From Bacilli bacterium (GTDB taxonomy: Bacteria > Bacillota_I > Bacilli_A > RF39 > UBA660), in assembly GCA_017622175.1 (NCBI GenBank), contig JAGARQ010000016.1, positions 26-64,025 on the forward strand: a stretch of 64,000 nt of DNA, in the 5' to 3' direction. The translations under genes and the position numbers were made by a program. Shown here piece after piece: positions 9,200 to 60,384 of the stretch (position 1 is the stretch's first letter; each line of letters opens with the position of its first letter). The notes under the pieces were generated by a model, which worked only from the letters and a program-made list of their open reading frames with translations, ran no database searches and was not told the origin of the DNA.

Positions 9200-10015
9200 C
9201 TAACCTCCTATTAATCTGGAAAATAAACAATCCAACCATAACTTATAATTAACATTAAAATCTAATTTTTGTATTTCTTCTTCAATAATTAAAATATAAT
9301 TTGTTAAATCATTAATACTTGTATTTTTTAATAGATTAATAACTCTTTCATCACAAAATGAATTTCTATTTGAAACATAATTCAAATATTTTAAAATAAT
9401 TTTCTCAATTTCTCCAAGAATTTCTTTCGCAATATTTTTATCCACAAGTATATTGTCCATAATGTGTTGATGATAAACAAATAAATCATCCTTTTTTACA
9501 ATGAACTTTAACATATCAAGTGTATTATCTGATAAAGTAATATTATAAGAATCATCTTTTAAAGAAATTATCTGACATCTAGATAAAATTGTTTCTATAA
9601 TTTTATATCTATTGGTAGTTAATAAAATTGCAATAATATCTTCTTCTGGTTCTTCTAAAAACTTCAAAATGGTATTTCCTGACGAATCATTTAATTTATC
9701 AGCTTCTTTTATAACATAAATCATTTTATTATTTAAAAAAGATTTATTTTTAAATTGTTCTTGTAATGCAATTAATTGAGCCTTTTTTATAACACTTCCA
9801 TCAGGCTCAACAATCTTTAAATCAGGATAATTACCACTATCAATCAATAAATTTGCAGATTCATCATTAATAATCAACTTAATAAAATCAATTACACAAT
9901 TAAAATCATTATCATAATTATCCAATTCTATTAAATAAGCATGAGAAATTTTATTAAATCTAACTATATTATTAATAAGCTCATAAAAATTTTTTTTAGG
10001 TGTAGTTAACTCCAT
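9200..10015 (-). CDS. holB: DNA polymerase III subunit delta'
   Basis: ISHAYLI, LKFLEEP and SRCQ motifs of clamp-loader delta'. Synteny with yaaT supports the call. Confidence 0.8.
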   Translation of the reverse strand: MELTTPKKNFYELINNIVRFNKISHAYLIELDNYDNDFNCVIDFIKLIINDESANLLIDSGNYPDLKIVEPDGSVIKKAQLIALQEQFKNKSFLNNKMIYVIKEADKLNDSSGNTILKFLEEPEEDIIAILLTTNRYKIIETILSRCQIISLKDDSYNITLSDNTLDMLKFIVKKDDLFVYHQHIMDNILVDKNIAKEILGEIEKIILKYLNYVSNRNSFCDERVINLLKNTSINDLTNYILIIEEEIQKLDFNVNYKLWLDCLFSRLIGG

Positions 10016-11170: not shown

Positions 11171-12958
11171 TTAATTAATTTCAACAATGTCACCAAAAAG
11201 TTCCACTGCACTACTTTTTATTATATCATTTTTTACTTCTTCTTCATATATTTCTTCAGGTTCTTCCATTAAAACATATGAATTTCCATCTTTTAAACAC
11301 TTTATATAATTATTTTTTTCTTTATCCCACTCTTCATCAGTAATAATAGCAATACATTTATTAGAATTAGTAATTTTATTGTATACATACGTTATTTTAT
11401 CCAATTCCAGTAGATTTTGTTTAACACTAGAATCATATGCATAACTAATAATAATTGAATTATCACTTGCGGCTCTGATAGAACCATCTAATAAATTACA
11501 AACTAAATAACCAATTTCTTGATCAAAAGTAAAATCGTTTAATAACTTAAATTTCTCTAACTCCTCATTAAGAATTTTCTTATTAGCAAGAGCTAATGTA
11601 TTATTAACTCTGGCTTTCATTATATCATTAATATTCTTAACTAATTTAATTGAATTATCAACATTTGAAGAATCATCTGATAAACTCATACCAGAATTAA
11701 TATCAGAACCATAACTAACATCTAAAGAATTATATTCATCTTCATCATCAGAAAAATCTTTATCAAAGTCATATTCTTCGTCTTCTTCATTTTCTTCAAC
11801 GCTGTTATTAAAATTTTCTGATTCAACTTTAACAATAGTATTTTCCTTATTTAATTCTTCCCCAGTAAAATTATTTCCCACTTTATTATTATTAATTATT
11901 TCCTGGGAAATAATTTCATTATTAATATTGTCTTTTATATATTTTATTAATAACATTTCAATAAATATTTTAGGGTTACCACTTCTTTTTATATCGAACA
12001 TTTTTTCGTTAATAAGATTGATTAATAACAGCATATTTTCAATAGAATAATCAGATTTTGTGTTTTCCACATAGTAATTTACAACATTATTCCTTAAAAA
12101 ATGCATTAATTGAGTTAAAATTTGGATTAAATTTTTACCATCACTGTTAAATTTATTAATATATTCTAAAACTTTAGAAAGATTACCAGAAAAAATAGAA
12201 TCACAAACTGCAATAAGCATTTTTTTAGTAATCATACCATTTACTTCGGCAAAATCATCTAAAGTAATTTTTTCCTGAGTATATGAAATAAGTTTATCTA
12301 AAGCTCCTAAAGCATCACGCATACCACCATCAGATGAAATAGCAATTTCCTCAAGAACTTCTTCATCAATATCTATACTTTCACTCTTACAAACAGTCTT
12401 TAATCTGTCAACTATCATGTCATTTGAGATTCTTTTAAAAGAAAAACATTGACATCTAGAAATAATTGTTTCCGGAACCTTTTGAGGATCAGTAGTCGCT
12501 AATATAAAAATTGCATGTTCTGGTGGCTCTTCCAATGTTTTTAATAAAGCATTAAAAGCTCCAATAGATAACATATGAACTTCATCAATTATATAAACTT
12601 TATATTTTAATTCGGCCGGAACTAAAGAAATTTTATTTTTTAATTCTCTAATTTCATCAACTCCATTATTTGAAGCAGCATCTATTTCAATAATATCTAC
12701 GCATTCCTTCTCAAATGAGTGAATACACGATTTACATTTTCCACAAGCATTTCCATCAACTGGTTCTAAACAGTTAATAGATCTAGCGAATATTTTAGAA
12801 GCTGTTGTTTTTCCAACACCACGTGGTCCAAAAAACATATAAGCATGACTAAATGACTTATTTTTTATAGAATTCTGAAGAGTTTTAACAATTGTATTTT
12901 GCCCAACAACACTTTCAAATCCTTGAGGTCTATATTTTCTATATAAAGCACGATACAT
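11171..12958 (-). CDS. dnaX: DNA polymerase III subunits gamma/tau
   Basis: GPRGVGKTT Walker A, DEVHML, a zinc module (CGKCKSC) and SRCQ. The C-terminal half contains an acidic low-complexity linker. Confidence 0.95.
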   Translation of the reverse strand: MYRALYRKYRPQGFESVVGQNTIVKTLQNSIKNKSFSHAYMFFGPRGVGKTTASKIFARSINCLEPVDGNACGKCKSCIHSFEKECVDIIEIDAASNNGVDEIRELKNKISLVPAELKYKVYIIDEVHMLSIGAFNALLKTLEEPPEHAIFILATTDPQKVPETIISRCQCFSFKRISNDMIVDRLKTVCKSESIDIDEEVLEEIAISSDGGMRDALGALDKLISYTQEKITLDDFAEVNGMITKKMLIAVCDSIFSGNLSKVLEYINKFNSDGKNLIQILTQLMHFLRNNVVNYYVENTKSDYSIENMLLLINLINEKMFDIKRSGNPKIFIEMLLIKYIKDNINNEIISQEIINNNKVGNNFTGEELNKENTIVKVESENFNNSVEENEEDEEYDFDKDFSDDEDEYNSLDVSYGSDINSGMSLSDDSSNVDNSIKLVKNINDIMKARVNNTLALANKKILNEELEKFKLLNDFTFDQEIGYLVCNLLDGSIRAASDNSIIISYAYDSSVKQNLLELDKITYVYNKITNSNKCIAIITDEEWDKEKNNYIKCLKDGNSYVLMEEPEEIYEEEVKNDIIKSSAVELFGDIVEIN

Positions 12959-13006: not shown

Positions 13007-13456
13007 TTACTTTTTTCTTCTCAAACTAAAGAAATTTTGTAATAATGTTTCACTCTTTTCCGCAGATAAATTATTAACGAAGTTAACAGATGGATTCACC
13101 ATATCAGACTCAAAAATCTTACTTATAATAAATTTATTGTTTTTATCTTTATTTTCCAAAGCAGAATAAACATTTTTTATACGAGATTGTTTGATTGCAC
13201 TTGCACACATAGGGCAAGGCTCCAAAGTAACATAAATATCGCAATCATCCAATCTCCAATTTTTTAACTTTTTAGAAGCCTTTAAAATTGCTAAAATTTC
13301 AGCATGATTCACAGAACACATTGATTTTTCCTTAACATTATGTGATTTAGCAAGAATTTTACCATCCTTTACTATTACAGCACCAATTGGAACTTCTCCA
13401 AGTTTAAATGCTTTTTCAGCTTCTAAAAACGCTAAATCCATATATTTTAAATCCAT
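13007..13456 (-). CDS. tadA: tRNA-specific adenosine deaminase
   Basis: HAE...PCPMC deaminase zinc motifs. I chose the ATG at 13456, which has a GGAG RBS. The longer ORF-track N-terminus reads through the SRP RNA gene. Confidence 0.9.
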   Translation of the reverse strand: MDLKYMDLAFLEAEKAFKLGEVPIGAVIVKDGKILAKSHNVKEKSMCSVNHAEILAILKASKKLKNWRLDDCDIYVTLEPCPMCASAIKQSRIKNVYSALENKDKNNKFIISKIFESDMVNPSVNFVNNLSAEKSETLLQNFFSLRRKK

Positions 13457-13471
13457 AGATATCACTCCAAT

Positions 13472-13548
13472 AAAAAAGTGCACATGGAAGGAGGTCCTTA
13501 AGGCTGCTACCTTCCGATCCTGACCTGGTTCAAACACTTCCATTGCAC
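13472..13548 (-). ncRNA. ffs: signal recognition particle RNA, minimal 4.5S-type hairpin
   Basis: The reverse strand reads GTGCAATGGAAGTGTTTGAACCAGGTCAGGATCGGAAGGTAGCAGCCTTAAGGACCTCCTTCCATGTGCAC followed by T6. It contains the conserved domain IV core (CCAGGTCAGG..CGGAAGG.AGCAGCC, GGAA tetraloop). The 5' and 3' ends pair with each other. Confidence 0.8.
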
Positions 13549-13555
13549 GATATAT

Positions 13556-13584
13556 ATTTTAATATAAGATTAATTTTTTGTAAA
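13556..13584 (-). promoter_or_regulatory. putative sigma-A promoter of ffs
   Basis: Reverse strand reads TTTACA, a 17-nt spacer, TAAAAT, then 7 nt to the G that begins the SRP RNA helix. Confidence 0.45.
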
Positions 13585-13680
13585 TAGTTTTGAAAAAATC
13601 CACAAAATTGTTAATAAAATTATATAAAAAGCCACAAAAATGTGGATTTTCTTTTTTTAAAAATAATATTGCACAAAAGT

Positions 13681-13707
13681 TGTGGATAAAATGTTTCACG
13701 TGAAACA
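13681..13707 (+). promoter_or_regulatory. composite DnaA box (TGTGGATAA) plus perfect parS (TGTTTCACGTGAAACA), module 1
   Basis: DnaA box at 13681-13689, a 2-bp spacer, and parS at 13692-13707. The parS is an exact match to the consensus TGTTNCACGTGAAACA and is fully palindromic. Confidence 0.8.
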
Positions 13708-13908
13708 TTAACTCATAATTAATAAAAATACATTAAAATATAATAAATAATTTATAAAGAATATGTATATACAAAAAAATATCAAGTAAAAATTAGTTAT
13801 TTAAACATAATATATCAATTAGAATTAAAAAATGTATAAAAAAATGTTAATAAAAAAATGTTAATAAAAAAATTCAAAAAGATTAAAAAATAAATAATTA
13901 ACAAATTC

Positions 13909-13935
13909 TGTGGATAAAATGTTTCACGTGAAACA
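13909..13935 (+). promoter_or_regulatory. composite DnaA box (TGTGGATAA) plus perfect parS, module 2
   Basis: DnaA box at 13909-13917, a 2-bp spacer, and parS at 13920-13935. The 27-mer is identical to module 1. Confidence 0.8.
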
Positions 13936-14059
13936 TAAAATAACAATAAAAGAAAAAAAAGAATCTGGTACTGTTAGAAAAATAAAATATTAATCTAATA
14001 TAAAATTTTAAATCCACAAAAATTGTGAAAAGAATAATTTAGATTTGATAAACATATTT

Positions 14060-14086
14060 TGTGGATATAGTGTTTCACGTGAAACA
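14060..14086 (+). promoter_or_regulatory. composite DnaA box (TGTGGATAT) plus perfect parS, module 3
   Basis: DnaA box at 14060-14068, a 2-bp spacer, and parS at 14071-14086. Confidence 0.8.
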
Positions 14087-14294
14087 TAAAAAGCTCATAA
14101 AAACAGTTAAATAAAATCAAATGAAATAGACATAGATAAGCAATAAAAAAGATAAATCGCTTAAAATGCATGCTAGCGTCAAATTTGACACAAAATAAAC
14201 AATAATAGACTATTATTTAAACAAAATTAAATAAAAATTTGACATTTAATAGAATTTAGTATCTTTTTTACATAAAAAAATTATTTCCCAAAAT

Positions 14295-14310
14295 TATTTC
14301 CCGGGAAATA
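14295..14310. promoter_or_regulatory. Noc-binding site (NBS), perfect palindrome TATTTCCCGGGAAATA, flanked by half-sites
   Basis: Exact NBS core ATTTCCCGGGAAAT at 14296-14309. Half-sites ATTTCCCA (14283-14290) and TGGGAAAT (14328-14335) lie nearby. Confidence 0.6.
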
Positions 14311-14432
14311 ATTAAAAATATAACTGTTGGGAAATATTTGTTACAAAATAAGATTATTTCGATTTTGCACAAAATATTTTTTCCACAAGGCAATAATAAC
14401 ACTTTTTTTACATTTTATAGACAAAATAAAAA

Positions 14433-14457
14433 GGATAGTTTTACACTATCCTTTTTT
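14433..14457 (-). terminator. rho-independent (bidirectional-looking) terminator after gyrA
   Basis: GGATAGT-TTTAC-ACTATCC hairpin with T/A runs on both sides. It lies immediately after the gyrA stop codon. Confidence 0.7.
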
Positions 14458-14458
14458 A

Positions 14459-16933
14459 TTATTCACTAACTACAGCAGATTCAGAACTATCCGATTGGTT
14501 ATCTATTACATCAGATTCATCCTCTTTAGCTACAATAGCAACAGTAGATACAGTTTGATCATCTTTTAAATTAATTAATCTTACACCTTGAGTTGCACGT
14601 TTTAATGTAGATATTTGTTCACCAGGCATTTTCATAATTACTCCACTATTTGTAACAACAATTACATCATAATCATTACCTTCATCAACACATTTAAGTG
14701 CAGACATCATACCATTCTTTTCAGTAACATTAAATGCTCTAACACCTTTGCTACCTCTATGAGTAAGTCTATATTCATCAATTACAGTTTTCTTTCCATA
14801 ACCTTTTTCAGTAACAATTAGAATATATTGTCCAGAATTAACAACTTCAGCACCAACAACTGTTGCTCCTTCAAGTTCAATTCCTTTAACACCTGAACTA
14901 CTTCTTCCCATCGAACGAATCTCATTTTCATCAAATCTAACCATACGTCCGTTACTTGCACCAATTGCAATTTCATTTTTTCCACAAGTCTTTCTTACTG
15001 AAATTAACTCATCATCTTCCTTTAAAACAATTGCAATCTTACCACCTTTACGAATATTATCAAACTCACCTATTTCAGTACGTTTAACAATACCACCTTT
15101 AGTAGCAAACACTAAATATTTTGTAACGTCATCGTTAACATCTAATTCAACTATCGAACTAATGTTCTCCTCTTTTTCTAATGGTAATAAATTGATTATT
15201 GGTAAACCTTTAGATTGTCTAGAAAACTCAGGCACTTCATAACCTTTCATTCTATATACTCTTCCTCTATTAGAGAAGAATAATAAATAGTCATGCGTTT
15301 TCATCGAAATCATATGTTCTACAAAGTCTTCTTCATTTGTAGCCATACCTTTAACTCCGACTCCTCCTCTATTTTGAGTTCTATAAGTATCAGTTCTTAA
15401 TCTCTTAATATAACCATTCTTAGTTAAAGTAATAATAATATCTTCTTCTGGAATTAAAGACTCATCTTCAATATACTCAATTGCTGTCATATCAATATTT
15501 GTACGTCTTTCATCTCCATACTTATCTTTTATTTCTAATAATTCATTTTTAATTACTTCTAATATCTTCGCATCACTAGCTAAAATGGCACGTAACTCGT
15601 CAATTAACTTTAATAAGTCATTTAGTTCATTTTCAATCTTTTCACGTTCTAAGCCCGTTAAACGACGTAATTTCATTTCTAAAATTGCATTAGCTTGAAC
15701 TTCACTTAACTTAAAGTTATTCATTAAGCCATTTCTAGCTTCTTCATCTGATTTTGCAGCACGAATCAATTTAATAACAGCATCAATATTATCTAAGGCA
15801 ATTTTTAAACCTTCTAAAATATGAACTCTTTTCTCTGCTACATCTAAATCAAATCTTGTTCTTCTAATAATAACTTCTTTTTGATAATCAATATATTTAA
15901 CAATAATATCTTTTAATCCTAATGTTTTTGGAACACCTTGATCCAACATTAAGAAGATAATACCATAAGTAGTTTGGAATGAAGTATGCTTATATAACTT
16001 ATTTAAAACAACTTGAGCATTAGCATCTTTCTTTAATGTAATAGTAATCTTAATACCATCTTTTAAATCAGAATGGTAGTCAGCTATACCTTCAATTGTT
16101 TTATTATGAACAAGTTCTGCTACTTTATTTTTTAATTCTAAAGTATTAACTCCATAAGGAACTTCATCTATAATGATATATTGTTTTCCATTTTTTTCTT
16201 CAATAGTAGCTTTACTTCTAATAGTAATTGAACCTCTTCCTGTTTCATAAGCCTTTTTTATCCCACTATTTCCAAGAATAATTGCTCCTGTTGGAAAATC
16301 AGGTCCTTTAATATATTTCATTAATCCATCTACATCAATTTCAGGATTATCAATATAAGCAACACACCCATCAATAACTTCACATAAGTTATGAGGCGGA
16401 ATGTTAGTAGCCATACCAACAGCTATACCAGTAGTTCCGTTAACTAAAATATTTGGAAATCTTGATGGTAAAACAGCTGGTTCTCTTTCACTTTCATCAA
16501 AGTTTGGAGTAAAATCAACTGTATCTTTATTAATATTTTTAAGTAATTCTAAAGATATTTTTGATAAACGCGACTCAGTATAACGCATTGCCGCAGCACC
16601 ATAGCCTTCAATATTACCGAAGTTTCCATGGCCATCTACTAACATGTAACGATATGAGAAATCTTGAGCCATTCTTACCATAGCTTCATAAATTGAAGAA
16701 TCACCATGTGGGTGATATTTTCCCATAACGTCTCCAACGATTCTAGCACTCTTTTTATGAGGCTTATCAGGTGTATAACCAGATTCATACATAGAATATA
16801 AAATTCTTCTATGAACAGGTTTTAAACCATCTCTTAAATCAGGTAATGCACGAGCAACAATAACACTCATTGAATATTCTAAGAAAGAGTCTTGGACTTC
16901 TTTTACAATACTATTTTTTTCTAATCTATCCAT
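14459..16933 (-). CDS. gyrA: DNA gyrase subunit A
   Basis: 824 aa. [26 protein letters not shown], the active-site region AAMRYTE and C-terminal beta-pinwheel repeats. Confidence 0.97.
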
Positions 16934-20128: not shown

Positions 20129-20575
20129 TTATCTATTTTTTCTCATTCTTAAAATATAGTCTAATCTAGATGCTCTAGAAACCTGATTTTCTATTGATCT
20201 ATAAGAACATGGAACAATAATTTCTTGACTGTTATCAAAGGTAATTTTAGTATTACAAGCATCTATTTTTTCAAACTTTTTCAATCTTTTTAAAGAAATC
20301 CAAACACATTCATCTGAAAATGGCGACGTAGTTGGAAAAATCACCAAATTTTCACTATCTTCAACAACAATCGGTACCTTATATTCAGCTCCTAATATTT
20401 CTTTAGCACTTTCTTTTCTTCCTTCATAAGTGCTTCCAAAATATTTACAGCTATCTTCCATTATTTTAAAAGGTTTATCATCTATAATATATCTTTCTTC
20501 ATCTTCATATACAAGACTATTTTCCTTTTCATTTGGAACTATAGCTAAAGTTCCATTACTAATTTCATATTTCAT
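20129..20575 (-). CDS. comK: ComK-family competence transcription factor
   Basis: The protein aligns with B. subtilis ComK along its whole length (from memory). Matching segments are YEISNGTLAIVP, SCKYFGSTYEGRK, PIVV..NLVIFPTTSP...WIS and SYRSIENQVSRA. An AGGGGGA RBS precedes the start. Confidence 0.85.
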   Translation of the reverse strand: MKYEISNGTLAIVPNEKENSLVYEDEERYIIDDKPFKIMEDSCKYFGSTYEGRKESAKEILGAEYKVPIVVEDSENLVIFPTTSPFSDECVWISLKRLKKFEKIDACNTKITFDNSQEIIVPCSYRSIENQVSRASRLDYILRMRKNR

Positions 20576-23394: not shown

Positions 23395-23867
23395 ACCATC
23401 TCCCCCGCAAGAAATTTATACGAACTAGTATAAGTTAAATTAAATCAAAAATAAATAGATTTTTATTAAAACTTAAACTATATATACTTTAATTATAAAG
23501 GAAAAAAACATTAATATCTATATATATACTTATAAAAGTAAAAATATTTAGAGGTCAATTCTCCCATAATTAAAATTGTCACGATTAGTATAATTGAAAT
23601 TGTTGAAAAAAGAAACCATTTTTTTGAAAAAAAAGTTTTAAACAGGAAATCCACAATTTTTTCCACTATTAATTTGGTGATATATAAAAGAAAAATTGAG
23701 TTTTCCACATTTTCCACAGATTTTTATTCACATATATATAAAAAGTATTCCACATAGTTGTGGATTTTGTTGAAAATAGTCGATTATTATAAAAAACAAA
23801 CATTTTATTGACAAAATATGAGAATTTCTATTATAATAATGGAGATTTATGTCTGGAGGTGGAACAA
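23395..23867. other. oriC, rpmH-dnaA intergenic part with a DnaA-box array
   Basis: Seven boxes: 23647-23655, 23659-23667, 23701-23709, 23710-23718, 23724-23732, 23746-23754 and 23759-23767 (variants TTTTCCACA, TTATTCACA and TGTGGATTT). Coding-strand polarity switches at this point. Confidence 0.8.
23808..23837 (+). promoter_or_regulatory. putative sigma-A promoter of rpmH-rnpA
   Basis: TTGACA (23808-23813), an 18-nt spacer, then TATAAT (23832-23837). Confidence 0.55.
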
Positions 23868-30455: not shown

Positions 30456-30495
30456 GATAACATAGGATAAAAAGAATAAAGTGAGGGGACAATAT

Positions 30496-31872
30496 ATGAA
30501 TACAGAAAATACAAATGATCAAGTAGTCCAATTATATTTAGATGACATAATACCAAATAGATTTCAACCAAGAGAAGTTTTTGATGAAAAAGCATTAAAA
30601 GAATTAGCAGTTTCAATTAAAGAACATGGTGTTATTCAACCTATTATTGTCCGTAACGTTAAAGGTAAATATGAAATTATAGCTGGTGAAAGACGCTATA
30701 AAGCCTCTGCTTTAGCAGGTTTAACAAAGATACCTGCGATAATAAGAGACCTAGATGATAAAGAAAGTTCAAAAGTTGCACTTCTAGAAAATCTTCAAAG
30801 AAAAAATCTTACTCCAATAGAAGAAGCAAGAACATATCAAAAAATATTAGAGATTGATGAAATGACACAAGAAGATTTGGCAAGAACCATGGGTAAAAGC
30901 CAATCTGCAGTAGCAAACAAATTAAGACTTTTATCATTACCAGATGATGTTCAAGATTCGCTACTAAAAGAACAAATATCAGAAAGACATGCAAGAGCCT
31001 TGTTAAATATACCAGAAGCATCTCAACAAACTGAAATGCTAAAGAAAATAATTAATAACAAAATGAGTGTTCGTGCAGTTGAAGAAGAAATAAAAAGATT
31101 ATATTCAAAAGAAGATAATGAAGGTGTTGGTAACATGGAAAATCAAAGTGTTGGAATTCCGGAAAGTATTTCAATTCCATCTACAAAAACATTTATAAAT
31201 AGTAATCCATTAATGCCAACAAATGATATTCCAAATCCTCAAAATACAGGAATAAGTGAAATATCATCAATTCCGCCAATTGGTCCAGGATTACCAGGAT
31301 TTGTTGCTCCACAAGTTCCAACATCTCCAGCATCAGAACCTGCTAAATTTATTAATTATGCAGAAATTGACGATGATGACGATGAAGAACCACCAATGCA
31401 ATTTAATAATCCTGTTACATCAATTGATGTTAATAGTATAAGAAATAGTGCAGTGGATATTGGAACTCCAAAAGAAGAAAAAAGTATGCCATCAGCAGAC
31501 TTGGACAGTTTATTAAACTTACAAAATGTATCAGCAGGTCCTTCAGTAGGGAACTTGCCAGGAGTAAATTCATTTTTATCTCCAGCAGAAGAAATTGTTA
31601 AAACAGATGCATCTAAGCCAATGCCAAAAGAAAAAGCAGCTGACTATTTTAAAACAGCGGATTTTATTCCAAACGTTCCAAGTATGTCATCAAATCCAAC
31701 AATGAATTTGGGAATACCTGAAATTACATCACAAGGAAATTATGACGCTGAAACAGCATTACAAAAATTGAGAGATACAATTTCAGATTTAAAAGCTCAT
31801 GGTGTTAGAATTCATGCAGATGAAATGAATTTCGAAACATCATACCAAATAATTATTAAATTAGATAAGTAA
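30496..31872 (+). CDS. noc: Noc-like ParB-family nucleoid occlusion protein with a long Pro-rich internal insertion
   Basis: ParB N-terminal domain (IIPNRFQPREVF, GERRYKA). The HTH segment GKSQSAVANKLRLLSLP resembles B. subtilis Noc (GKGQSTIANKLRLLKLP, from memory). The C-terminal ETSYQIIIKLDK resembles the Noc C-terminus. It occupies the rsmG-noc-soj-spo0J position. Confidence 0.75.
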   Translation: MNTENTNDQVVQLYLDDIIPNRFQPREVFDEKALKELAVSIKEHGVIQPIIVRNVKGKYEIIAGERRYKASALAGLTKIPAIIRDLDDKESSKVALLENLQRKNLTPIEEARTYQKILEIDEMTQEDLARTMGKSQSAVANKLRLLSLPDDVQDSLLKEQISERHARALLNIPEASQQTEMLKKIINNKMSVRAVEEEIKRLYSKEDNEGVGNMENQSVGIPESISIPSTKTFINSNPLMPTNDIPNPQNTGISEISSIPPIGPGLPGFVAPQVPTSPASEPAKFINYAEIDDDDDEEPPMQFNNPVTSIDVNSIRNSAVDIGTPKEEKSMPSADLDSLLNLQNVSAGPSVGNLPGVNSFLSPAEEIVKTDASKPMPKEKAADYFKTADFIPNVPSMSSNPTMNLGIPEITSQGNYDAETALQKLRDTISDLKAHGVRIHADEMNFETSYQIIIKLDK

Positions 31873-31969: not shown

Positions 31970-32758
31970 ATGGGAAAGGTTATATCATTAGTAAATCAAA
32001 AAGGTGGAGTTGGTAAGACAACAACAAGTATCAATCTTTCTGCATCATTAGCAGTATTAGGGAAAAAAGTATTATTAATAGATTTAGACCCACAAGGAAA
32101 TACAACTACTGGTGTAGGAATTAACAAAGGAGATATAGAAAAAAGTGTATATGATGTTTTAATCGGAGAATGTACAGTAAAAGAAGCAATGATCAAAACA
32201 AAACATAAAAATTTGTATGTATTACCAGCAACAATTAATTTAGCAGGATTGGATATTGAATTAGTAGAAAAAAGTCATAGAGAAAACGGATTTGCAAAAG
32301 GTGAACAACTAAAAATACATTTAGCAGAAGTAATAGATGACTTTGATTTTATAATTTTAGATTGTCCACCATCATTAGGAATTATTACAACAAATGCATT
32401 AACAGCATCAAATTCAGTAATAATCCCAGTACAATGTGAATTCTTTGCACTAGAAGGAATAACACAATTATTAAAGACAATAATGTTAGCTCAAAAAACA
32501 TTGAATCCAACACTTGATATAGAAGGTGTATTACTTACAATGCTAGATTCAAGAACAAATTTAGGATTTGAAGTAGTAGATGACATTAGAAAATTCTTTA
32601 AAGAAAAAGTATATAATACAATAATTCCAAGATTAGTAAGATTGACAGAAGCTCCATCACACGGTGAGCCAATTGTGGCATACGATCCAAAAAGTAGAGG
32701 TTCAGAAGCTTACTTGAATTTAGCGAAGGAAGTGATTGCAAGAAATGGAAACAAATAA
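31970..32758 (+). CDS. soj: ParA-family chromosome partitioning ATPase Soj
   Basis: Deviant Walker A NQKGGVGKTTT. ParA core, 262 aa. Confidence 0.92.
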   Translation: MGKVISLVNQKGGVGKTTTSINLSASLAVLGKKVLLIDLDPQGNTTTGVGINKGDIEKSVYDVLIGECTVKEAMIKTKHKNLYVLPATINLAGLDIELVEKSHRENGFAKGEQLKIHLAEVIDDFDFIILDCPPSLGIITTNALTASNSVIIPVQCEFFALEGITQLLKTIMLAQKTLNPTLDIEGVLLTMLDSRTNLGFEVVDDIRKFFKEKVYNTIIPRLVRLTEAPSHGEPIVAYDPKSRGSEAYLNLAKEVIARNGNK

Positions 32759-33641
32759 TCCAAAAAGAAGAGCATTAGGAAGAGGTTTGGAGGAATTATT
32801 CTTTAATGAACCAATTGCTTATGATAAAGTTGAAGAAAAAATCATAACAGAAACTCCTAGCGAAGAAATTGTAAAAGTAAAATTATCAGAATTAAGAAGC
32901 AATCCATATCAACCAAGAAAAGTATTTGATGAAACAGCTTTACAAGAACTAGCGTCATCAATAAAAGAACATGGTGTATTTCAACCAATAATAATTAAGA
33001 AAAGCATAAAAGGATATGAAATAATTGCAGGTGAACGTCGTGTAAAAGCTTCAATCCTAGCTGGATTAGAAGAGATTCCAGCAATCATAAGAGACTTTAA
33101 TGATACAGAAATGATGGAAATTGCTTTACTAGAAAATCTTCAAAGAGAAAACTTAAATGCAGTAGAAGAGGCAACTGCATATAAAAAGTTAATAGAAACA
33201 TTAGCCCTTACTCAAGAAGAACTAGCAAAAAGATTGGGTAAAAGTAGAAGTCATATTACAAATATGATTGGCTTATTAACATTACCAGAAGATATTCAAT
33301 CACAAATTAGTGATAAGAAAATAACTATGGGACACGCAAGAGTACTAAGTAAATTAGATAGCCACGTTCAACAAAAAGAATTGGCTGAAAAGATTATCAA
33401 CGAAGGACTTAGTGTAAGACAACTTGAAGAATTAACAACATCAGATACAGAATATGCTAGAACAAAACAAATTAAGCGTAAAAACTCAGAATATAGTGAA
33501 TATCATTATATTCAAGAAGAATTATGCGAAAAATTTGGAACAAAAGTAAAAATTAAAAATAATAAAATTGAGATAAACTTTGTAAATGGAAGTGACTTAA
33601 ATAGAATATTAGAAGTCATGGGGATTATTCCAAGAGGATAA
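32745..33641 (+). CDS. spo0J: chromosome partitioning protein ParB/Spo0J
   Basis: RALGRGLEEL, GERRVKA and the HTH GKSRSHITNMIGLLTLP. The C-terminal KIEINFVNGSDLNRILEVM resembles B. subtilis Spo0J. I chose the ATG at 32745 over the TTG at 32736. Confidence 0.9.
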   Translation: METNNPKRRALGRGLEELFFNEPIAYDKVEEKIITETPSEEIVKVKLSELRSNPYQPRKVFDETALQELASSIKEHGVFQPIIIKKSIKGYEIIAGERRVKASILAGLEEIPAIIRDFNDTEMMEIALLENLQRENLNAVEEATAYKKLIETLALTQEELAKRLGKSRSHITNMIGLLTLPEDIQSQISDKKITMGHARVLSKLDSHVQQKELAEKIINEGLSVRQLEELTTSDTEYARTKQIKRKNSEYSEYHYIQEELCEKFGTKVKIKNNKIEINFVNGSDLNRILEVMGIIPRG

Positions 33642-59940: not shown

Positions 59941-59958
59941 AAAAATCCTTGCTATACT
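59930..59958 (+). promoter_or_regulatory. putative sigma-A promoter of rpmE
   Basis: TTGAAA, a 17-nt spacer, then TATACT. Confidence 0.45.
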
Positions 59959-60015
59959 AATAACGCATTTGAATTACTATGACTTTATTAGTCATGGCGG
60001 AAGGAGAAGATAAAT

Positions 60016-60237
60016 ATGAAAAAAGATATACATCCAGAAGTAAAAGAATGTACAGTAACTTGTGCATGTGGAGAAACTTTTACAGTTAAATCAACAAAAT
60101 CAGAAATCAATGTTGAAGTTTGTTCTAAATGTCATCCTTTCTATACAGGAAAACAAAGTAGAGCATCTCGTGCAGGACGCGTAGATAAATTCAACAAAAA
60201 ATACGGATTTACATCAACAAATGAAACTGCTGAATAA
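60016..60237 (+). CDS. rpmE: 50S ribosomal protein L31 (zinc-binding type A)
   Basis: MKKDIHPE..., CxC...[10 protein letters not shown]. Confidence 0.95.
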
Positions 60238-60248
60238 GCAGTTTTTTT
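60226..60248 (+). terminator. rho-independent terminator after rpmE
   Basis: ACTGCT-GAATA-AGCAGT followed by T7. Confidence 0.75.
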
Positions 60249-60251
60249 ATT

Positions 60252-60326
60252 AATTCCACAGTTAGTGTGGAAAAAGTTTTCAACAACTAAAAATAACAAA
60301 ATATTATCCACAAAAATTGTGGAAAT
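60252..60326. promoter_or_regulatory. DnaA-box cluster (two head-to-head pairs)
   Basis: AATTCCACA (60252-60260) faces TGTGGAAAA (60266-60274). The perfect box TTATCCACA (60304-60312) faces TGTGGAAAT (60318-60326). Confidence 0.6.
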
Positions 60327-60384
60327 AATAAATGAGGTAGAAATACCTCATTTTTCTATGCTATAATTATTAAGAGGGATAGGT

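Follow-up and report, generated by a model that had tools for sequence, protein, structure and literature searches.

Within a 64-kb stretch of DNA from an uncultured, metagenome-assembled "Bacilli bacterium" (contig JAGARQ010000016.1, positions 26 to 64,025, G+C ~27%, GyrA MBO5120389.1; hereafter the window), the non-coding spacer between gyrA and ffs, the gene for the signal recognition particle (SRP) RNA, contains three copies of a 27-bp composite module in which a predicted DnaA box is joined to a predicted parS site. On the minus strand the gene order is dnaA, dnaN, an open reading frame (ORF) for a ComK-family protein, recF, gyrB, gyrA, the spacer, ffs, a tadA-like deaminase gene, dnaX, ybaB and recR. 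From 24 kb the plus strand carries rnpA to mnmE, mnmG, rsmG, a gene for a Noc-like ParB paralog, soj and spo0J. The cumulative GC-skew minimum lies at ~23.7-24 kb and gene orientation flips at the same place; because the two coincide, oriC is placed just upstream of dnaA. The modules, on the downstream side of gyrA, are 9.6-10 kb away from both the oriC box cluster and the GC-skew minimum. Coordinates of the individual features are collected in Table 1.

Composite modules in the gyrA-ffs spacer

The 27-mer TGTGGATAWARTGTTTCACGTGAAACA has three matches in the window, all on the plus strand and without mismatches, with copy-to-copy distances of 228 and 151 bp. No further match was found in the 64 kb even when 2 mismatches were allowed, and 100 dinucleotide-preserving shuffles yielded none at all (0 expected by chance). 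The 16-mer TGTTTCACGTGAAACA in each module is perfectly palindromic and matches the parS consensus TGTTNCACGTGAAACA exactly; at up to 2 mismatches the three module sites are the only parS-like sites in the window, against 0.10 expected. Copies 1 and 2 have a perfect box (TTATCCACA on the minus strand) and copy 3 has one with a single mismatch, ATATCCACA; the gap between box and parS is 2 bp in all three. Perfect DnaA boxes number five in the window, two of them within modules. Within the origin region it is the parS modules (13681 and 13909), and not oriC, that contain the perfect boxes; the others in the window are at 9438, 16958 and 60304. Between copies the 27-bp cores are 93-100% identical and the 40-bp flanks 25-62%, against a random background of 37 ± 8%, and variation within the cores is confined to position 9 of the box and the 2-bp gap. 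A sequence-only reading of this DNA had described three modules with a 2-bp gap, perfect parS and unconserved flanks, a description that proved accurate in every particular. On every sequence criterion tried, the modules match the definitions of parS and of the DnaA box.

The strong boxes are accompanied by a second, weaker element. Across 17 modules with a 2-bp gap, from 7 genomes and down to 75% GyrA identity, the consensus is TA-TGTTYCACGTGAAACA-TT-TTATCCACA-g-nTTTTGTkna.aA, with a conserved TGT and a TGTKNAWAA-like element at a fixed distance of 5 bp after the strong box. This element is probably a weak inverted partner of the module's strong box; in the window the putative partners are 2-3 mismatches from consensus.

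The 904-bp spacer contains seven TCCACA/TGTGGA cores, where the remainder of the window would predict 0.70 (Poisson P=9e-6), and is the densest kilobase of the window for DnaA-box cores, exceeding oriC (5 cores). In the oriC box cluster upstream of dnaA (~23640-23770) every DnaA box is imperfect (1-2 mismatches), and oriC shares with the spacer an inverted-pair arrangement of boxes (ATTCCACA-tagt-TGTGGATTT). The spacer also holds an exact copy of ATTTCCCGGGAAAT, which we take, from the B. subtilis literature, to be the Noc-binding-site consensus. Matches to it in the window number three (14296-14309, 1152-1165 and, with 1 mismatch, 11898-11911), against 0.17 expected; the one in the spacer is ~210 bp from the nearest module and is not fused to it. 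By its predicted sites, the spacer looks like a shared loading zone for ParB, Noc and DnaA. An Rfam scan of the spacer at E≤1 returned the SRP RNA and no other known RNA. A promoter role for the modules was considered and rejected, a consensus scan giving 11 promoter-like sites against 10.4 in shuffles. A block at 14150-14192, AAATCGCTTAAAATGCA...GCGTCAAATTTGACAC with the palindrome GTCAAATTTGAC, is conserved in two relatives, L099 (96% GyrA identity) and L012 (92%), amid unconserved spacer; it is without an Rfam match and without a convincing promoter.

Table 1. Predicted sites of the gyrA-ffs spacer and the genes relevant to them (window coordinates).
Feature	Position	Strand	Details
Composite module 1	13681-13707	+	box TGTGGATAA 13681-13689 (TTATCCACA on - strand), 2-bp gap, parS TGTTTCACGTGAAACA 13692-13707
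Composite module 2	13909-13935	+	perfect box 13909-13917, 2-bp gap, parS 13920-13935
Composite module 3	14060-14086	+	one-mismatch box TGTGGATAT 14060-14068, 2-bp gap, parS 14071-14086
Putative weak inverted partner box, module 1	13667-13675	+	TATTGCACA, 5 bp past strong box
Putative weak inverted partner boxes, modules 2 and 3	13895-13903 (module 2), 14046-14054 (module 3)		analogous positions
gyrA-ffs spacer	13555-14458		904 bp; predicted parS array, DnaA-box cluster and Noc-binding site
Stand-alone inverted DnaA-box-like pair	13596-13617	+	AAATCCACA-aaat-TGTTAATAA; TCCACA core at 13599; directly upstream of ffs promoter
Stand-alone inverted DnaA-box-like pair	13628-13649	+	AAAGCCACA-aaaa-TGTGGATTT
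Stand-alone inverted DnaA-box-like pair	14010-14032	+	AAATCCACA-aaaat-TGTGAAAAG; repeat family D5
One-mismatch DnaA box	14379-14387	+	TTTTCCACA; near gyrA terminator; kept in L099, L012
Exact Noc-binding-site consensus	14296-14309	+	ATTTCCCGGGAAAT; duplicated half-site 14277-14302; kept in L099, L012
ffs (SRP RNA)	13469-13554	-	spacer boundary; promoter-like site 13556-13584 (-)
gyrA	14459-16933	-	spacer boundary; terminator hairpin 14428-14456
dnaA	22015-23394	-	domain IV intact, DHSTV motif; Bac_DnaA_C 4.6e-32
soj/parA	31970-32758	+	precedes spo0J
spo0J/parB	32736-33641	+	ParB_N and HTH_ParB domains, GERR motif for binding of cytidine triphosphate (CTP)

Several other features of the window were noted. 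In the 463-aa Noc-like ParB paralog (30481-31872, plus strand) the ParB_N and HTH_ParB domains extend to about residue 207; its last ~250 residues have no Pfam match, and its NCBIfam Noc score of 291.8 bits is below the cut-off of 315. The gene for the ComK-family protein (148 aa; 20129-20575, minus strand; Pfam PF06338, E=5.8e-45) lies between dnaN and recF and occupies the same position in all close relatives fetched (L201-L211), an unusual replication-operon neighbour for a gut Bacilli metagenome-assembled genome (MAG). The intergenic region 59941-60384, with an L31 ribosomal-protein leader (59977-60006), has DnaA-box-like sites at 60067, 60266 and 60304 (perfect) and may be another small DnaA-box cluster. 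At ~55-56 kb there are 6 TCCACA cores per kb, but under long ORFs. The ORF call for the tadA-like deaminase (13007-13543, minus strand) overlaps the SRP RNA gene; its true start is probably at ~13457, since coding conservation in an alignment of relatives stops there.

parS arrays and box adjacency in relatives

Relatives were sampled without reference to boxes, by a metagenome scan with the GyrA protein and from contigs with GyrA homologues of 87-93% identity. In these samples all loci with at least 65% GyrA identity and available downstream sequence carry 1-9 parS in the gyrA-dnaX spacer. At 60% identity or less no locus has a parS array in the spacer, L179 being the one exception, and the array is therefore a character of the clade. 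Boxes abut parS at a gap of 2 bp in L201 (three, plus one at gap 3), L205 and L128, and at other gaps in L204 (1 and 9 bp), L208 (0, 1 and 7), L209 (8-9), L137/138 (4-5) and L211 (one, 13). The 2-bp gap is limited to the window's sub-lineages, represented by L099, L012, L201, L205, L128 and L117. Since the juxtaposition occurs in the orthologous gyrA-downstream spacers of relatives, the sequence-only reading keeps its ground on the point that mattered most to it. The idea of a box on the ter-side of parS acting as a directional device was dropped, the side differing between lineages.

The strength of the association was estimated from the box-blind loci. Among 20 of them, with 89 parS, a perfect box lies within -2 to 12 bp of parS at 3 loci, against 0.017 expected and a maximum of 1 locus in 2000 shuffles; for boxes with up to 1 mismatch the figures are 7 loci against 0.69. 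In 24 de-duplicated spacers (28.9 kb), boxes within -2 to 5 bp of parS number 23 against 0.42 expected, or ~55-fold, adjacency counts of this kind being inflated by within-array duplication and shared ancestry and not made up of independent events. Enrichment falls with distance, to 13-fold at 6-12 bp and 3-6-fold beyond; the spacers are therefore box-rich overall, with abutment a specific, sharp feature.

Alignment of the window's spacer with those of L099 and L012 identified modules 1 and 3 as one-to-one orthologues. The 27-bp cores of orthologous modules are 89-100% identical and their 40-bp flanks 38-62%, compared with 37 ± 8% for random spacer 40-mers; core identity is 0.96 for module 1 (flanks 0.42-0.62) and 0.89 for module 3. 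The orthologue of module 2 has a 2-bp deletion in L099, leaving a gap of 0, and in L012 it has kept the box (TTGTCCACA) and lost parS, which suggests that the box is maintained independently. Taken together, the ~55-fold adjacency and the conserved cores beside near-random flanks argue that both box and parS are under selection.

The arrays themselves are often perfect or near-perfect tandem repeats, with units of 309 bp (L061), 88 bp (L053), 119 bp (L122), 37 bp (L121) and 109 bp (L094), and show rapid turnover of the centromere array through unequal recombination. In L206/207/210 the units are ~245 bp long, and every parS stands 44 bp away from a Noc-binding site. A flipped triple module, ATTTCCCGGGAAAT-aat-TTTATCCACA-a-parS, is present five times in L126; in it a Noc site, 3 bp, the TTATCCACA box and 1 bp precede parS. 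Noc sites were also noted at the loci L188, L032/L018 and L211.

A scan of 185,579 GTDB species genomes with the pattern TGTGGATA-N(0-15)-TGTTNCACGTGNAACA, which covers one orientation, with the TGTGGATA box before parS as opposed to the flipped TTATCCACA-N-parS, gave at least 120 loci. The results that follow refer to the matches listed. Gaps span the whole range, and the spacing of the window accounts for 13 of 120, against ~7.5 if gaps were uniform; with so mild an excess, a universal 2-bp architecture was rejected. At least 20 or so matches are syntenic (gyrA, spacer, dnaX), in uncultured Bacilli, "Mycoplasma", "Tenericutes" and "Clostridium" MAGs with GyrA identities of 60-96%. Their spacers have 2-9 parS each, many with an abutting box, and the gap is constant within a genome and differs between genomes (-1 to 11 bp). 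Conserved pairs also occur beyond the clade, in Flavobacteriales, Deferribacterales, Lachnospiraceae, Treponema, Steroidobacteraceae and Caulobacter (L067), and in actinobacterial MAGs (Bifidobacterium, Ilumatobacteraceae). These cross-phylum pairs usually adjoin mnmG, soj or gyrA/gyrB. In 67 of 96 unique TGTGGATA-parS pairs the next base is A, which completes the full 9-mer box and was not required by the search; other gap positions are ~32% A. The pair from Caulobacter (L067) belongs to this set. One Acidocella MAG chromosome (OZ255623.1; L076, L080, L109) has three near-identical copies of TGTGGATAAC-N-GGGGGG-TGTTTCACGTGGAACA at ~1.38, 1.98 and 2.56 Mb of 3.2 Mb. These composites are distant from one another and probably far from oriC, and might be a dispersed element.

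Explanations for the abutment

The reading we favour, and to which we give roughly even chances, is that the spacer is both a centromere and a DnaA-box cluster, with functional cross-talk between DnaA and ParB. The sites are clustered, conserved and tightly adjacent, and genes for the cognate ParB, Soj and DnaA lie in the same window. From this evidence we infer that the three parS sites are where ParB-CTP loads and the boxes where DnaA sits, and that their proximity is of functional importance. The gyrA-ffs spacer would be an origin-proximal centromere at which Spo0J/ParB-CTP clamps load on a three-site parS array, and would double as an oriC-proximal DnaA-box cluster. Its inherited building block would consist of parS, 2 bp, a consensus DnaA box, 5 bp and a weak inverted box. 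Because relatives' arrays are often obvious tandem duplications, this module was probably multiplied by local duplication, after which purifying selection would have held both sites while the flanks randomised. DnaA would be parked directly beside every ParB loading site, and the likeliest consequence would be mutual regulation of DnaA and ParB. High-affinity boxes could sequester DnaA inside the ParB/Soj partition complex, leading to titration and Soj-mediated control of initiation of the B. subtilis kind, and DnaA on its boxes could in turn affect how ParB loads or slides, as in the centromere of Caulobacter. The proposal of the sequence-only reading, that ParB loading and DnaA occupancy may be physically coupled, is plausible, given the ~55-fold enrichment of boxes at up to 5 bp from parS. 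Because gap, side and orientation vary, a rigid, stereospecific DnaA-ParB complex is disfavoured; such variation is compatible with forms of proximity that would not depend on helical phase, namely sequestration of DnaA, steric gating or a leaky, one-sided roadblock.

Several observations weigh against functional cross-talk. Contrary to what had been supposed from the window, the architecture is not fixed: outside the sub-lineages with the 2-bp gap the clade has gaps of -1 to 13 bp, L126 has a flipped box, and the side of the box relative to gyrA varies by lineage (distal in ~18, proximal in ~9). Adjacency is also dispensable, since the close relatives L121, L122, L202/203 and L206/207/210 have arrays without abutting boxes, as do many relatives at 65-80% GyrA identity; such boxes are likewise missing from L123/124, L127, L129-134, L160 and L172. 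Altogether, arrays that lack an adjacent box occur in about a third to two thirds of lineages, and in L188 (gap 4) the boxes are mostly decayed while the parS sites are still perfect. Most canonical composites may descend from one ancestral module, in which case the adjacency peak is partly inheritance and not repeated selection. Outside the clade, the remaining parS of the loci listed have an adjacent box in 9 of 120 cases, against 2.65 expected, an association too weak for a general rule that every parS has a box. A predicted DnaA box beside one parS thus seems to recur across phyla without being the rule for all parS sites.

The strongest competitor holds that the two sites serve independent, uncoupled functions, their abutment having come from tandem amplification of an ancestral unit and each site being kept separately. 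Relatives' arrays do include tandem duplications that carry along whatever adjoins parS (units of 309, 88, 119 and 37 bp; units with a Noc-binding site 44 bp from parS), boxes are 3-6-fold enriched away from parS as well, and box pairs stand alone in the window; adjacency has been lost in many lineages that retain the array, and neither gap nor orientation is conserved. We nevertheless consider uncoupled functions rather unlikely, as the 55-fold peak at ≤5 bp far exceeds the enrichment elsewhere in the spacers, the composite lasts from 65% to 100% GyrA identity as flanks randomise, the flipped fusion in L126 may be a second, independent origin, and conserved box-parS pairs occur in several other phyla. 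A wider proposal, which we regard as doubtful, is that box-parS modules, sometimes with a Noc site as third member, are a widespread and unrecognised class of cis-element by which DnaA occupancy would directly gate the loading or the directional sliding of ParB-family CTP clamps, or ParB/Soj would gate DnaA. If this were true, initiation would be hard-wired to segregation in many phyla, and the Bacilli clade would have its most explicit, multi-copy form. DnaA might also act as a one-sided roadblock or insulator that biases the exit of ParB-CTP clamps (or of Noc clamps or ParB-loaded SMC) and perhaps shields the ffs promoter. Such a device would be insensitive to helical phase and box orientation, which suits a gap that varies and a box that can be flipped; in any one genome the boxes all lie on one side of their parS, the box in L126 stands exactly between the Noc-binding site and parS in all 5 copies, and DNA-bound roadblocks restrict ParB-CTP sliding in vitro (PMC8299390, PMC7053999). 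It seems a distinctly unlikely function, however, since the side that would be blocked, relative to gyrA/oriC, is distal in ~18 lineages and proximal in ~9, ParB can bypass roadblocks through dimer-dimer recruitment (PMC9242446), and DnaA turnover at its sites is reported to be quick (PMC5319796).

The remaining explanations deny the box, or the repeat, the role assumed so far. If TGTGGATAA belonged to an extended site that a different protein recognises, for instance a ParB paralog or a dimeric CCACA-N5-TGTGG regulator, this would explain why an inverted partner is often found 4-6 bp from the box, like a palindromic operator, in a genome that encodes an unusual 463-aa Noc-like ParB paralog. 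We judge this reading very unlikely: TGTGGATAA reproduces the 9-mer DnaA consensus exactly and varies as DnaA boxes typically do (TTTTCCACA, TTATCAACA, TTGTCCACA and ATATCCACA), oriC upstream of dnaA has boxes of this type and the inverted pair as well, and conservation of the partner half is poor. The Noc-like paralog, moreover, has a candidate site apart from the box, because an exact Noc consensus lies elsewhere in the spacer. The decay of boxes in L188 and their absence from many relatives might be taken to mean that the box is a neutral passenger or a functionless relic, but this is barely credible in view of perfect boxes kept across species while flanks are at random identity, of the enrichment statistics, and of window cores that differ only at box position 9 and in the 2-bp gap. 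Finally, a repeated unit in AT-rich non-coding DNA, with oriC-like arrangements of DnaA boxes, might be mobile or dispersed, belong to a CRISPR-like array or mark a second origin of replication. The chances of this are negligible. There are only 3 irregularly spaced copies in one spacer, and in relatives the unit is confined to the syntenic spacer; the neighbouring genes that were identified include no transposase or cas-like gene, and terminal repeats were not observed. A second origin at 14 kb was rejected, the skew minimum and strand switch being at ~24 kb beside dnaA and the skew uniformly negative across 14 kb. The sequence-only reading had seen here two abutting sites under selection and not a mobile or CRISPR-type repeat, and the single syntenic spacer, the kept cores and the random flanks bear this out; it had also allowed for the unit being a generic dispersed repeat, and a search of the window for the 27-mer found no match outside the three copies.

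Relation to known systems

The coupling of replication initiation to segregation is understood mechanistically in few models, namely Soj-DnaA in Bacillus, DnaA at parS in Caulobacter and ParB2/RctB in Vibrio. The modules described here offer a compact substrate of 27-45 bp on which cooperativity, exclusion and roadblocking between DnaA and the CTP-dependent ParB clamp could be studied, together with natural variants among relatives that include gaps of -1 to 13 bp, a flipped box, boxless arrays and triples of Noc site, box and parS.

The nearest overall counterpart is the Firmicutes-type parS/Spo0J-Soj system of B. subtilis, which is alike in the 16-bp palindrome, the origin-proximal position and the several copies, in the cognate soj-spo0J near rsmG and noc, and in a ParB with the GERR motif. 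Whereas the parS sites of B. subtilis are scattered and partly inside genes, those of the origin region here are gathered in one non-coding gyrA-ffs spacer, each fused to a DnaA box, and the spo0J of the window contains no parS. A second counterpart is provided by oriC-proximal clusters of DnaA boxes outside oriC, with which E. coli datA is also grouped. Those of B. subtilis hold initiation back (Okumura et al. 2012, PMC3245932), and deletions there of the clusters and of spo0J are synergistic on initiation, through Soj (PMC3245932). The spacer is similar to them as an intergenic cluster of consensus boxes near but outside oriC. It differs in that its strongest boxes are 2 bp from parS, while PMC3245932 mentions clusters and parS as both origin-proximal, with no abutment.

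In secondary replicons of plasmid-like ancestry, initiator and partition sites are also combined. At rctA/parS2 of Vibrio cholerae chromosome II, RctB and ParB2 sites are adjacent or overlapping and link replication control to partition (PMC6399470), but the initiator there is RctB, not DnaA. The cisII/cisMP repeats of Deinococcus radiodurans are bound by DnaA and ParB and sit inside the origin itself (PMC7671480). The Noc system presents a further parallel, through the exact consensus in the window's spacer and the Noc site fused to box and parS in relatives; in S. aureus Noc restrains DnaA-dependent initiation (PMC5540599), which is relevant to those triples. The literature searched contained no description of a Noc site-DnaA box-parS module, and a full-text search found none of a repeated, abutting DnaA-box-parS module in Firmicutes-like bacteria.

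Side-by-side DnaA and ParB sites, of which the sequence-only reading knew no description, have a precedent in Caulobacter crescentus, where the parS region contains DnaA boxes to which DnaA binds, enabling segregation (Mera, Kalogeraki & Shapiro 2014, cited in the review PMC6399470). There DnaA uses domain IV at both parS and ori, its activity is tied to the onset of segregation, and movement of the centromere is triggered in a DnaA-ATP-dependent manner (PMC6399470). The two systems are alike in having DnaA boxes within or next to parS, and the Caulobacter locus was itself recovered in the box-parS scan. In Caulobacter, however, the gap is larger (9 bp after the 8-mer), the pair is not a repeated, identical module, and it operates in an alphaproteobacterial cell-cycle circuit. 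If a box beside one parS does recur across phyla, the Caulobacter observation would generalise. The link between centromere and DnaA suggested for the window thus resembles the one known from Caulobacter, and what is new here is its repeated, hard-wired form.

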